This document shows positions 1 through 5,530 of a stretch of DNA of 37,514 nt, one piece after another (the stretch's first letter is position 1; each line of letters begins with the position of its first letter). Source of the DNA: Lysobacterales bacterium (GTDB lineage: Bacteria > Pseudomonadota > Gammaproteobacteria > Xanthomonadales > SZUA-5); the NCBI GenBank assembly GCA_022844165.1, contig JALHMH010000043.1:1-37514 (forward strand), given 5' to 3'. Under the pieces are notes generated by a model. The model did no database searches and was not told the DNA's origin. It saw only the letters and a program-made list of their open reading frames with translations. The translations under genes were made by a program, and so were the position numbers.

Positions 1-540
1 CCCCCATTGAGCGCTGCGCGCTCAATCGCCCCCTTAATTTAAGGGGGCTTCAACAGCCAAAACCGCTCCGAAGAAATTTGACTCAACTAACAAGATCCAG
101 CTCCATCAAGGACTCTACCGAGGCTTCACCTCAGACCGACGAGCATTGCTGGCTTCGCCAGACACCGTACTTGCCACAACCCCCATTGAGCGCTGCGCGC
201 TCAATCGCCCCCTTAATTTGAGGGGGCTTCAACAGCCAAAACCGCTCCGAAGAAATTTGACTCAACTAACAAGATCCAGCTCCATCAAGGACTCTAGCGA
301 GGCTTCGCCTCAGACCGCCGAGCATTGCTGGCTTCGTCCGACAGCGCACTCGCCACAACCCCGCGCTCCGCATTTCCGGCCCGGCGGCAAAGCCGCCGGT
401 CGTTCGGATCGGCCCACGCCTATCGGCGTGTAAGCGCCGGTCCTCACCCCCGCTTGTACTCAAGGGGGCTTCAAAAGCCAAAGCCGCTTCGTCGAAAACT
501 TGACTCATTTGTCGTGAGGAGTCTCCGTCAAGGACTCTAG
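1..540 (+). repeat. Tandem array of repeat family R1: partial unit <1-118, 179-bp-period unit 115-297, expanded unit 294-540; probably continues left of the window
   Basis: 1-179 and 180-358 are near-identical (period 179). Units start CTAG/CTAC-CGAGGCTTC(G/A)CCTCAGACC and end CAAGGACTCTA(G/C). Junctions at 115-118, 294-297 and 537-540. Confidence 0.95.
375..449 (+). other. Structured ~75-nt module X, copy A, nested in R1
   Basis: TCCGGCC-CGGCGGC/GCCGCCG-GTCGTTC-GGATCGGC..CACGCC/GGCGTG-TAAGC-GCCGGTCC-TCACCC; same architecture as 5025-5099 and 5393-5466. Confidence 0.85.
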
Positions 541-610
541 CTTGCTCCGCGTTCCTCAGGCAGAATCCGCGGCCTTGCGCTACTGCGCATCTTTAACGAA
601 TTACGAGCGA

Positions 611-829
611 ATGTCGAAAGAAGACCATATCGAAATGGAAGGCACGGTACTTGAGACCTTGCCGAACACTATGTTTCGTGTGCAATTGGAAAACGGCCAC
701 GTCATTACTGCGCACATTTCCGGACGTATGCGCAAGAACTACATCCGCATCCTGACGGGCGACAAAGTCAAAGTCGAAATGACGCCCTACGACCTGAGCA
801 AGGGTCGAATTACGTTCCGCCAGAAATAG
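611..829 (+). CDS. infA: Translation initiation factor IF-1
   Basis: [53 protein letters not shown], 72 aa, classic IF-1; ATG at 611. Confidence 0.99.
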
Positions 830-868
830 CGTTGTTGGTTGCCCGAACCCAGCAGCCGTTCGATCGTT

Positions 869-1825
869 TTATTCCACGATTGTCAGACCGCCCAACACGG
901 CACCTTCTGTCGGTGTGATTCTTTTGTCGTTGTCGGTGAACTGAAATGGCACCGATACCAGTGCGCCGCCGGCGTTGCGCTGCACGACGAAATGCAAATG
1001 TGGGCCAGACGAGAAACCCGTGTTGCCGCTATCGGCAATGTGTTGCCCTGTACGCACACTGTCGCCTACGCCGACCAGAGCGCTTTCGAGTTCCAGATGC
1101 GCATACACGGCCATAGTGCCGTCGTCGTGCACAATGCGAATGTGATTGGCCCGGTCGCCCAGGCGCCGTAAGTCGGTGCCGGATTCATGGAAATCTCGCT
1201 CGACACTCATGACAACGCCGCCTCGCGCAGCAAGGATCGGCGTACCGATGTCGAGCGCGAAATCGACGGCATGATAATTCTCGGCCGCGGTGTGGCTGAA
1301 TTTCCCGCCAAAGGCCTGATGGATCGTGCTGCTGCCCCTGAATGGCAAGCGATAGACCGACTGATCGTTGTGCCTGGCGCCCGGGTTTCCGGGCACATAA
1401 CGATATTGAAACTGGTAGCTCCAACCCAGGCTCGGATCCAGCGGTTGAACCGTAAGTACGGGCGTTGTCTGTTCTCCCCCAATGACCACGGATGCCGGCA
1501 GGGGCGGTTCGCTGATCACGTTGTGCTGAGATTCGAAGCTGATCAGTACCTCGACGGGTCCGCCATAACCATTCCACAGGCTGTAGCGGCGATCGTCTTT
1601 GGGGCCGCTCTCGCGCAACTTGAGGCGTTGCGCAGGATCGACATCGACGAGCTGCTCTTTCACCGGCGCTGTTGTGCCCTCCGGTTTGCTGTCGCTGAAA
1701 TGCACCACGCCGTTTTCGTCGGTGTAACTGTAGATGCGTTTTGCCTCCGCAGACGCGCTGACGAGCGCCAGCACACATGCTGCGATAGAGGAAATTTTTG
1801 CTGCGCAACACATCTGGGCTGACAT
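869..1825 (-). CDS. M23 family metallopeptidase with N-terminal DUF4124-like domain
   Basis: Signal-like N-terminus; IYSYTDENGVVHFSD (DUF4124-like); M23 motifs HAVDF, YAHL and GPHLHF. Start (1825 vs 1813) uncertain. Confidence 0.88.
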   Translation of the reverse strand: MSAQMCCAAKISSIAACVLALVSASAEAKRIYSYTDENGVVHFSDSKPEGTTAPVKEQLVDVDPAQRLKLRESGPKDDRRYSLWNGYGGPVEVLISFESQHNVISEPPLPASVVIGGEQTTPVLTVQPLDPSLGWSYQFQYRYVPGNPGARHNDQSVYRLPFRGSSTIHQAFGGKFSHTAAENYHAVDFALDIGTPILAARGGVVMSVERDFHESGTDLRRLGDRANHIRIVHDDGTMAVYAHLELESALVGVGDSVRTGQHIADSGNTGFSSGPHLHFVVQRNAGGALVSVPFQFTDNDKRITPTEGAVLGGLTIVE

Positions 1826-1839
1826 AAGCCGAATCCGCC

Positions 1840-3165: not shown

Positions 3166-4542
3166 TCAGCATTCGATCACATTCACAGCTAACCCACCGC
3201 GGCTGGTTTCCTTGTATTTGTCCTGCATATCGCGACCCGTGTCGCGCATGGTCTTGATGACTTTGTCGAGGGAGACGCGATGTTTGCCATCGCCGCGCAA
3301 TGCCATGCGCGAGGCGTTGATGGCTTTGACCGCTCCCATGGCATTACGTTCGATGCACGGGATTTGCACTAACCCGCCGATGGGATCGCACGTCAGGCCC
3401 AGATTGTGTTCCATGCCGATTTCGGCCGCATTCTCGACTTGCAGCACACTGCCGTCCAATGCGGCGGTCAGGCCGCCCGCGGCCATGGAGCATGCGACGC
3501 CGACCTCTCCCTGGCAGCCCACTTCCGCGCCCGAAATCGATGCATTCTCCTTGTACAAAATGCCAATCGCGCCTGCGGTCAGCATGAAGTCGAGCACGCC
3601 GTTGTCGTCAGCACCAGGGCAAAAGCGCGAGTAGTAATGCATGACCGCGGGCACGATGCCAGCGGCACCGTTGGTGGGTGCCGTGACGACGCGGCCGCCG
3701 GCAGCATTTTCCTCGTTGACCGCCAGTGCGTACAGATTGACCCAGTCCAGTATCGTTAGCGGATCGCGTAAATTGGCTTCAGGTCGGGCTGTTAACTCCC
3801 GATACATGGCAGGCGCGCGCCGCGCAACTTTCAGGCCACCTGGCAGCACGCCGTCCGCACGCAGGCCGCGCGTAACGCAATCCTGCATAGCTTGCCAGAT
3901 GCGCAACAGGCCCTCGCGAATTTCGCTATCGGTCCGCCACACGCGCTCGTTGGCGCGCATCACTTGAGCGATCGACAGTGTGTTCTCGGCGCATTGCTTC
4001 AACAGCTCATCGCCGGTCGAGAACGGGTAGGGTTGCGCGGTGGCATCGGGAACGATGCGATCTGCGGCGGCTTCGTCGTGGTTGACCACGAAACCGCCGC
4101 CGACCGAATAGTAGTCACGTGTCAGCAGCACAGTTTCATCCGTGCCGAAGGCTGTCATTCGCATGCCGTTGCTGTGGTACGGAAGCTTTTGGCGCTTGTT
4201 GAAGATCAGGTCGGTTTTTTCGTCGAATCGGATTGGGAAGCCAAGAACGGAAAGGCGTTTTTCCAGGCGAATGCGTTCAAGGTCGCGTGGAATCTGGTCT
4301 GGATCGATACGATCCGGTTCGTTCCCTTCGAAGCCCAGCAATACCGCCACATCGGTACCATGCCCCCGTCCGGTATGCGCCAGCGAACCGAAGAGCTCGC
4401 CTCGCAGCCTTGCGACATTGGCCAAAAGTCCGCGCTCCTGCAAGCGATGCACAAAACGACTGCCGGCGCGCATCGGACCTACTGTGTGTGAAGAGGAAGG
4501 TCCAATTCCAATTTTGAAGAGGTCAAAAACGCTGACTGCCAC
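3166..4542 (-). CDS. sdaA: L-serine ammonia-lyase, Fe-S dependent
   Basis: [54 protein letters not shown] start. Confidence 0.97.
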
Positions 4543-4665
4543 GGCGCGTACCCTTGAACGGCGAAGGGGGGATTATCCTGGATTCAATCGCCCGGCGCGC
4601 TGATGCGACTTGCCCTCAGACCCGATCGCCGCAATGATCGAGAGCCTGCCACGCCTCACGGCGAT

Positions 4666-4893
4666 ATGCTGACCCTCTATTTTCGAGAGTACTGTCATCT
4701 ATGCGAAGACGCCGAGGCAATGTTGGCCTCGCTGCGTATTGCGTATCGTCGTATCGACATTGATACCGACTTGGCGCTGACAGCCCGCTATGGGCTTCGG
4801 GTCCCCGTTTTGCGGCAGGAGAGCGGTAAAGAAATCGACGGCCCCTTCGATCCCGACTTAATCGCCGCATGGATTGCCGGTCCGGCGACATAG
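4666..4893 (+). CDS. Glutaredoxin-like protein (DUF836 family)
   Basis: MLTLYFREYCHLCEDA (CxxC) and YGLRVPVL, 75 aa. Confidence 0.88.
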   Translation: MLTLYFREYCHLCEDAEAMLASLRIAYRRIDIDTDLALTARYGLRVPVLRQESGKEIDGPFDPDLIAAWIAGPAT

Positions 4894-4985
4894 CTGCCGG
4901 TCGTTCGACCTGCCACAGCACCGGCCTTGCGACGTGAGCCGTTGGGCCGAATTGCCAGGCGCGGGAGATGTGGCACAGACGCTCT

Positions 4986-5307
4986 AGCCCGCATATTTCA
5001 TGAGAGAACGCGGAAGATCGCGAAGGGTGAGAAAGGGCAAGCTTGCATCGCATGCGATGCGCCCTCTCGAACGACTGGCGGCTGCGCCGCCAGGCCGGAC
5101 CTTTGCGCCGGAATCGAGGCGCGAGAAGGAGGAATGGTTGTTCCATTGCGATGACGAGCAACGAAGAGTCCGGCGCAAAGAACGAGCGAGGGCCGTGTTG
5201 GCGAGGAAATGGCAGCGGACAGCCTGTCATTCCAACCAATTCGAAGGTTCCGCGCCGTTACAACGAAATGAGGCCATTTCATCGCGGCCTCATGAAATAT
5301 GCGGGCT
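4986..5307. mobile_element. MITE-like non-autonomous element R2 (322 bp)
   Basis: Perfect 19-bp inverted repeats AGCCCGCATATTTCATGAG (4986-5004) / CTCATGAAATATGCGGGCT (5289-5307). CTAG (4984-4987) and CTGG (5306-5309) at the ends. Internal 12-bp stem 5101-5112/5169-5180. No credible ORF. Confidence 0.75.
5025..5099 (-). other. Structured module X, copy C, nested in R2
   Basis: Reverse complement reads TCCGGCC-TGGCGGC/GCCGCCA-GTCGTTC-GAGAGGGC-GCATCGC/GCGATGC-AAGC-TT-GCCCTTTC-TCACCC. Confidence 0.85.
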
Positions 5308-5530
5308 GGTGTTCCGCAATGACCTTGAACGATTTCCGCGTCTTTCGACCCCATGCAGCGTTGCTTCTCGTCGCCATAGAAGAGCTATGTCGTCCGGCCC
5401 GGCGGCGCAGCCGCCGGTCGTTCAAGTCGGCTCGCGGCATGCCGCGAAAGCCACCGACTTTCACCCTCGTCGCGCCTTGCCTGACGCCGATATCCATCGG
5501 AAATAGTGTTCAACTTAATGACGGAACACC
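5308..5530. mobile_element. MITE-like non-autonomous element R3 (~223 bp)
   Basis: Ends GGTGTTCCG-CAATGA (from 5308) and TTAATGACGGAACACC (5515-5530) form an imperfect inverted repeat with 9 perfect terminal bp; abuts R2 directly. Confidence 0.65.
5393..5466 (+). other. Structured module X, copy B, nested in R3
   Basis: TCCGGCC-CGGCGGC/GCCGCCG-GTCGTTC-AAGTCGG-CT-CGCGGC/GCCGCG-AAAGC-CA-CCGACTT-TCACCC. Confidence 0.85.

Follow-up and report, generated by a model that had tools for sequence, protein, structure and literature searches.

What kind of unit keeps its fold while its sequence changes, and how does it come to lie inside repeats of several kinds? This question is raised by the stretch of DNA analyzed here, positions 1-37,514 of contig JALHMH010000043.1 (the window, 37,514 nt), which belongs to a 4.68-Mb Lysobacterales genome of 60.5% G+C. 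Three copies of a structured module of about 75 nt, referred to as X, are present in the window, and their stems differ in sequence but remain paired. A preliminary description of the window had proposed that X is a miniature mobile unit nested in other repeats and maintained for its structure. The comparisons presented below point to a discrete unit that was inserted seamlessly beside a CCC target and is kept by its folded shape.

X copies in the window and their anatomy

The pattern shared by the copies, TCCGGCC-N17-GTCGTTC-N34-40-TCACCC, had only three matches in the window, at 375-449 (plus strand), 5025-5099 (minus strand) and 5393-5466 (plus strand), and none over 100 dinucleotide-preserving shuffles of the window. 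The copies, linkers and paired variable stems are thus as first described, and each copy does lie in a host repeat of its own, R1, R2 and R3, respectively. Scores were obtained with a covariance model of 75 positions and 26 pairs, which was built from 22 aligned copies with the structure set by hand. R2 and R3 resemble MITEs, miniature transposable elements with inverted repeats. The copies and their host repeats are as follows.

375-449, plus strand: X copy A (subtype A), in the third R1 unit; pattern match, 87.7 bits
5025-5100, minus strand: X copy B, within R2; pattern match, 79.5 bits
5392-5466, plus strand: X copy C, within R3; pattern match, 83.4 bits
4876-4938, plus strand: degenerate or truncated X, with the 5' hairpin and linker retained
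1-541, plus strand: R1 array of three tandem 179-nt units (1-179, 180-358 and 359 to ∼541)
4986-5307: R2, MITE-like, 322 bp, bounded by perfect terminal inverted repeats of 19 nt; holds copy B
5307-5531: R3, MITE-like, 225 bp, bounded by terminal inverted repeats of ∼24 nt; holds copy C

The degenerate copy was detected by the covariance model at 4876-4920 (21.8 bits, E 0.0024) and was extended to 4938 by nhmmer (E 3e-5).

The fold of X comprises two hairpin domains, P1 followed by stacked P2 and P3. The linkers are partly paired, with CGG of the 5' motif pairing to YCG of the central motif and so lengthening P1. Four short unpaired motifs are shared throughout the order, namely CCGGCC, G-K-CGTTC, AAGC or AAAC, and Y-TCA. 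Plus-strand RNA folds of copies A, B and C gave −44.3, −39.4 and −37.3 kcal/mol (z −3.67, −2.92 and −1.63), and the corresponding minus-strand folds were nearly equal (−43.4, −39.5 and −41.0 kcal/mol).

Discrete, seamless insertion beside CCC

Empty sites with a consistent junction were sought by comparison of filled and empty forms of the host repeats, and they were found. R2 is present in dozens of copies in the same-genus genome G001, most of them without X, and dozens of copies there have window position 5027 joined straight to 5101. Alignment of three empty and three filled copies placed ...CAAAG/CCCTTCG... against ...CAAAG/G-T-CCGG...TCTCA/CCCTTCG... (junctions marked by slashes), which defines a 73-nt insert with ends that cannot be shifted and with no duplication. 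Metagenome contigs contained the same R2 joint (5027 to 5101, 73 nt skipped) in four of four runs and an R3 joint (5391 to 5465, also 73 nt skipped) in two of four, together with an R1 form lacking X in which 371 is joined to 458 with 11 other letters between.

The state of a given site varies within and between genomes. At one R2 site in this genome, one copy is empty, two hold a single X, and one holds two different X copies in tandem. R3 is filled in 17 of 17 copies here, and G002 has R3 copies without X plus one whose X, in the corresponding place, is of another subtype; that position therefore holds different subtypes in two genera. A second X position was observed in some R2 and R3 copies. 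When an orthologous spacer was compared between two Stenotrophomonas terrae strains, X was present in one strain, before the C-run of a small hairpin, and absent from the other, and the unit of X plus host is multi-copy in S. terrae genomes (at least 29 among the matches listed). In all, X was found in at least four unrelated contexts and at solitary sites, with the same ends each time. The precise filled and empty forms of R1, R2 and R3 and the orthologous Stenotrophomonas locus bear out the proposal of a miniature mobile unit nested in other repeats, and X is regarded with high confidence as a discrete, seamlessly inserted mobile unit. The accompanying remark that other R1 copies lack X is correct in that such units exist, but X is the usual state genome-wide: blastn recovered ∼100 R1-type units with X and ∼35 with an alternative hairpin.

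The insert is 72-75 nt long, starts with G-Y-CCGG and finishes with Y-TCA. Across 156 unique contexts, the 3' flank following Y-TCA had C at +1, +2 and +3 in 125, 137 and 134 cases, whereas in the 5' flank only position −1 was biased (T or C in 131 of 156). Because CCC stays behind in empty sites, it is target and not element. Read on the opposite strand, X is an insert directly 3' of GGG. For copy B, the insert itself spans 5028-5100 (73 nt), with the minus-strand reading G-T-CCGG...TCTCA, and the CCC left behind is at 5025-5027; for copy C, the insert extends over ∼5392-5463 with the CCC flank at 5464-5466; the last three bases of copy A (CCC, 447-449) are probably also retained target outside the insert. 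In other genera, C-run/G-run palindromes have X in front of their C-rich arm, and empty versions of them occur nearby. A T-CC target with CC as core or duplication, as suggested initially, is not supported by these junctions, which are unambiguous, duplicate nothing, and have a CCC that is one-sided and retained.

Since the one-sided CCC is retained, the site can be re-used, and entry of each new copy between the previous copy and CCC leads to head-to-tail arrays. Such arrays were present at C13:87266-87656 (73-nt period) and C45:18303-18978 (69-nt period), with joints of the form ...TCA/G-Y-CCGG... in which end is joined to start. The C45 array consists of approximately ten units of 69 nt, and in all but the last of them another sequence stands in place of hairpin 2's 3' half; a run of N within the array makes its length approximate.

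Further sites were observed at gene ends. At G305 L213 1424-1624, an nlpD-like gene (LysM and M23) has X at its 3' end, flanked on either side by a direct 50-nt repeat of the gene end, and in G203 (L208/L212) the corresponding place holds two X copies separated by 149 nt. The nlpD-like site looks like a local tandem duplication of a unit made up of gene end plus X. At G007 L032 ∼1501-1574, X is located between a tRNA 3' end and a partial repeat of that tRNA end, an arrangement resembling an island junction.

Conservation of the fold

To assess covariation, 103 matches (93 distinct) from 84 loci in many genera were aligned to the model. Paired cells made up 82.6% of 2379, compared with 63.7% after shuffling, and none of 500 shuffles reached the observed value. 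Changes on both sides were seen in 21 of the 26 pairs, and the covariation score was 0.44 as opposed to 0.135 for shuffled alignments and 0.06-0.10 when the partners were slid. Between subfamilies, the stems are entirely different yet still paired. The alignment was fitted to the model, which favors the pairing result; the conclusion is nevertheless safe because the effect is large and the stems are visibly fully different. X is kept by its folded shape rather than by its sequence, and the strong covariation in 93 distinct copies from many genera agrees with the original proposal that selection acts on structure.

It had also been suggested that G-T wobbles favor the TCC...CCC strand as the folding strand, which did not hold on larger samples. 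Wobbles in paired cells of the cross-genus alignment were G:T or T:G in 45 cases and A:C or C:A in 70. Among copies from other genomes, 83 of 93 had the more stable fold on the minus strand, as did 55 of 72 from this genome, and G-U pairs in the folds numbered 81 on the minus strand versus 40 on the plus strand. Recent single stem changes in the three big subfamilies of this genome comprised 20 plus-strand wobbles, 20 minus-strand wobbles and 23 other mismatches, from which it follows that copies decay neutrally after insertion. If either strand is important in active lineages, the GGG/TGA...GGCCGG strand is the more likely.

Abundance and spread

Searches with nhmmer returned 136 matches in this genome, 101 of them full length, and the covariance model (E up to 0.01) identified at least 144 copies, a lower bound with 150 of ∼9,500 candidates scored. 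All copy counts given here are lower bounds, and the assemblies of metagenome-assembled genomes (MAGs) break at repeats. At least eight stem subfamilies occur together in this genome, with CCGGCC, G-K-CGTTC, AAGC and Y-TCA-CCC common to all. By the covariance model, X was present in 19 of 39 relatives including this genome and in 15 of 22 others of its family, four of which carry 119, 80, 68 and 58 copies. Further copies with paired variable stems, for which the model had been used to search, are accordingly numerous.

On an even sample of the order with stricter filters, X was detected in 26 of 149 genomes and 4 of 12 families; in a class-level sample, it was detected in 2 of 151 genomes, both from this order. 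An exact-pattern scan with one genome per species yielded at least 103 stretches, of which 80 were taken as loci. Most of the loci listed belong to Lysobacter, Luteimonas, Stenotrophomonas, Dokdonella, Thermomonas, Pseudoxanthomonas and other Lysobacterales. Alphaproteobacterial outliers with the same motifs and helices were found in a Rhodobacter MAG (42.8 bits) and in Jannaschia seohaensis (31.5 bits), which may reflect horizontal spread or contamination.

Rfam gave no matches at gathering scores over the whole window, and at E up to 10 over positions 1-6000 it gave a single weak, unrelated match at 1606-1634. X is thus not a named RNA family, in line with its not having been recognized as one previously, and no description of it was found in open-access full text.

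Genomic placement

Genes were called with a simple self-trained caller (3,321 genes, 85% coding), and 125 of the 136 X matches were intergenic. Among the 109 with two called neighbors, 62 lay between tandem genes (42 co-oriented and 20 anti-oriented), while 25 had convergent neighbors and 22 divergent ones, in proportion to the shares of spacer length (56, 20 and 25%, respectively). No promoter-like or terminator-like signal was seen at X. Placement proportionate to spacer length, taken together with neutral decay, indicates that X is selfish and non-autonomous and not a functional RNA copy by copy. The pattern is that of a selfish insert and not of a 3' untranslated region or leader element. 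Single copies are not under selection once inserted, and structure is selected only in lineages that are still transposing. A terminator or promoter role of X was rejected from folds and signal scans, and a tRNA-like origin was rejected from junctions and folds.

Mode of movement and rival explanations

The explanation favored here is that X is a gene-less, non-autonomous mobile element that moves as a folded single strand by means of an enzyme supplied in trans. A probability of roughly 0.55 is assigned to this statement as a whole; the single-strand, trans-enzyme mechanism itself, which is drawn by analogy, is held tentatively and at slightly under even odds. According to this model, an X strand would fold into its two hairpin domains and move single-stranded, and a structure-specific enzyme acting in trans would cut and rejoin it without a scar. 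Recognition by the enzyme would depend on the geometry of the hairpins together with the unpaired motifs, leaving stem sequence free provided that it is paired. X would enter 5' of CCC, and CCC would be left in place with the same site open for the next copy.

A number of findings weigh against the trans-mobilized single strand. No enzyme linked to X was found in searches covering Y1, TnpB, IS110, Y2/IS91 and neighboring genes, and, as had been noted at the outset, no mobilizing enzyme is encoded in the window. Y1 genes occur in 29 of the 39 relatives, X-free ones included, and none of 11 Y1 loci from 10 genomes had an X-like flank (best X-model E 0.078). TnpB was not found in this genome. Y2/IS91 genes occur in 17 of the 39 relatives and are missing from the X-rich genomes G002, G003, G008 and G016 (68, 58, 17 and 26 X copies, respectively). 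Only housekeeping genes, and no transposase, were found between nearby X pairs, and no recombinase recurred beside X in the 30 of 50 flanking frames scanned from five low-copy genomes. A replication-strand test based on GC skew gave 36 versus 35 (±10 kb), 46 versus 28 (±25 kb, p 0.047) and, at a further span, 34 versus 18, with genes similarly biased; nor do wobble or mutation counts single out an active strand. The ends of IS200/IS605 elements usually carry similar hairpins, whereas the two in X are dissimilar. A single genome moreover holds many stem subfamilies, which would be uncommon if a protein read the hairpin sequence and is more typical of an RNA or a structure-only enzyme.

The genes examined in these searches were of several kinds. 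Y1 (IS200-like or RAYT) is represented in this genome by a single gene flanked by its own palindromes. This RAYT-like gene (149 amino acids; C48:21393-21728, L001 1483-1932) has two pairs of inverted palindromes, of 27 and 17 nt, that are unrelated to X; the longer occurs at ∼7 loci genome-wide, and heads of the GTAG-type repetitive extragenic palindromic (REP) sequence number ∼100. Y2/IS91 is present here only as fragments and one chimeric open reading frame (ORF). A mobile-element graveyard at C8:120500-135500 contains an intact IS66-family transposase (536 amino acids) and IS91-type Y2 fragments, and a 386-amino acid ORF within it combines an N-terminal domain of the phage-integrase SAM-like type with the C-terminal portion of a Y2 transposase. 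No half-X split around a gene was found in this genome. The 30 flanking frames encoded transport, protease, polymerase and similar families and included one IS110 gene. IS110 in this genome amounts to one 140-amino acid fragment, interrupted by a stop and located at a contig end, although the assembly may hide copies. The recognition of hairpins by HUH transposases, to which the preliminary description had drawn attention, provides the best analogy remaining but is unproven.

A more far-reaching proposal is that X belongs to a hitherto undescribed class of mobile element defined by shape, with two hairpins and four motifs as the sole content of its 73 nt and seamless integration and excision beside CCC, brought about by an undiscovered structure-specific single-strand recombinase widespread in Xanthomonadales or by a ribozyme- or DNAzyme-like activity of its own; this is conceivable but doubtful. 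It is unlikely that X is instead a structured RNA (a small RNA, cis element or self-cleaving ribozyme) scattered by carrier repeats, with the motifs as tertiary or catalytic contacts. Three covarying helices with conserved junction nucleotides, as in functional RNAs, the presence of many stem sets together in one genome, and folding that surpasses that of shuffled sequences in two window copies out of three (z −3.67 and −2.92) are all consistent with such an RNA. The absence of an Rfam match and of promoter-like or terminator-like signals at X argues against it, as does position and orientation relative to genes that follows spacer length only. Stem mutations also lack a strand preference (20 versus 20, plus 23 mismatches), the cross-genus wobbles lean to the opposite strand (45 versus 70 in the alignment and 40 versus 81 in folds), and an RNA role alone leaves the seamless CCC-adjacent insertion and the arrays unexplained. 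Movement by a tyrosine-type structure-reading recombinase, in the manner of an integron integrase acting on folded attC with the CCC-adjacent site as attachment site, is decidedly improbable. Recognition of shape with little sequence conservation and repeated insertion at the same site would suit such an enzyme, the arrays of units recall cassette arrays, and Xanthomonadales are reportedly hosts of chromosomal integrons. An integron attC is defined by inverted core sites at both ends that pair in the folded strand; by this definition no attC-like core sites were recognized in X, which has non-complementary ends and two separate hairpins instead of one long one, and the identity of X as attC is disfavored by these junctions and folds. 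The copies are also scattered genome-wide and not gathered at one platform, and no integrase recurs between nearby X pairs or in the 30 of 50 flanking frames scanned.

Even less probable is an immobile X, a module of mosaic repeats like the bacterial interspersed mosaic elements (BIMEs) that binds a host protein and has spread through hitch-hiking with its host repeats R1, R2 and R3 and through gene conversion among them. Most copies here do lie within the R1 mosaic, ∼20 near-identical copies owe their number to R3, and passages of PMC3733652 describe REP dimers nested in palindromes in other bacteria. Conversion requires homologous flanks, however, and the contexts of X, at least four unrelated ones plus solitary sites with the same ends, share none. 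Hitch-hiking is further at odds with the two different X positions in R2 and in R3, the different subtypes at the same R3 position in two genera, the two different subtypes in tandem at one R2 site and the orthologous site that is empty in a sister strain. Least credible of all is a miniature IS110/IS1111 derivative moved by a DEDD recombinase and guide RNA. Insertion that makes no classical duplication, frequently within repeats, is a property of IS110 elements, and one X copy in G305 has an IS110-family gene ∼210 nt away. The IS110 analogy, which had been drawn early on, is not supported because IS110 needs a core common to both junctions and this is missing in X; in addition, this genome has only the truncated IS110 with an internal stop. 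The G305 gene was rejected as an enzyme candidate, since it belongs to an 8-copy, 1.2-kb insertion sequence (L213 1688-2907) whose ends lie in a GTAG-type REP doublet, itself present in dozens of copies, and not in X.

Comparison with known systems

Passages of PMC10055086 describe IS200/IS605 elements and the gene-less palindrome-associated transposable elements (PATEs) as inserting next to a motif without duplication and having scarless donor joints and end stem-loops. On that partial account, X is alike in its one-sided fixed motif, lack of duplication, scarless empty sites, end stem-loops, possible mobilization in trans and high intergenic copy number. PATEs are recognized by the lack of duplication and a fixed neighboring motif, both of which X has (CCC in 125-137 of 156 contexts). 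Unlike an IS200/IS605-derived PATE, X has ends common to no Y1 TnpA-coding element examined. Such elements are also marked by strand-specific activity coupled to the direction of replication, for which the GC-skew counts of X varied with the span considered. It further differs from IS200/IS605 in the absence of TnpB here, its size of ∼73 nt, its dissimilar hairpins, its many stem variants and the lack of recognizable pairing between guide and motif.

REP sequences appear in passages of PMC3733652 as single 20-40-bp palindromes with a GTAG or CGTC tag at one end, and passages of that paper and of the RAREFAN preprint portray REPs and BIMEs as long-lived intergenic hairpin repeats that form mosaics and clusters and nest in palindromes. 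As far as these passages go, X is like the REP, BIME and REPIN families in its abundant intergenic hairpins, mosaics, palindrome nesting and stems that vary between families. In contrast to REPs, the 93 distinct copies of X have no GTAG or CGTC tag in conserved positions, and GTAG-type REPs are present beside X as a separate family. Whereas a REPIN is an inverted REP doublet folding into one long hairpin, X consists of two different, independent hairpins in fixed order and orientation. A RAYT gene is expected to lie among the repeats that it serves, and the RAYT-like gene here is flanked by palindromes other than X. Like MITEs, X is small, gene-less, multi-copy and intergenic, but it lacks terminal inverted repeats and target duplication; R2 and R3 have inverted ends and merely carry X. 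With IS110/IS1111 elements it shares site-specific insertion into repeat-rich intergenic DNA without classical duplication, but not a common junction core; an intact gene is absent here, and the IS110 of a relative targets a GTAG REP. Passages of PMC2267715 contain no Xanthomonas-group terms.

By analogy, X would fit the working principle of single-strand hairpin-dependent transposons and the ecology of REPs and BIMEs, but it is a member of neither family. Failing membership in every named family, it is set apart from them while apparently working like them.

Implications

If moved as proposed, X would be a compact natural mobile element recognized by its fold and a few unpaired bases; its junctions are exact and leave no scar, and its target is three bases long. 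Copy numbers exceed 100 in some uncultured Lysobacterales, and cultivable Lysobacter, Luteimonas and Stenotrophomonas carry X as well, so that the missing enzyme can be sought experimentally. Such an enzyme, if found, would join the few single-strand structure-guided recombination systems (IS200/IS605, RAYT and integron integrases). In carrier genomes, X accounts for contig breaks, tandem arrays and much of the intergenic length variation, and a covariance model for X would prevent its mis-annotation as small RNAs or regulatory hairpins.

Host repeats and adjacent genes

R1 is a mosaic composed of a REP-like hairpin, a spacer, X or a palindrome, and a C-run/G-run hairpin. In the window, units one and two hold a short palindrome at the place occupied by X in unit three. 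The parts of R1 differ in copy number (about 165-184, 115 and 35). The R1 array fills the space upstream of infA (611-829). In G001, the orthologous region upstream of infA is without the whole R1 array, and homology begins only at approximately window position 537; the comparison was therefore set aside as uninformative for an empty-site test of X.

R2 and R3 adjoin each other at 5307. R3 is present in ∼20 near-identical copies in this genome, several of them at contig ends. Upstream of these repeats, a glutaredoxin-like ORF (4603-4893, PF05768) takes its last codons and stop from the decayed X copy at 4876-4938.

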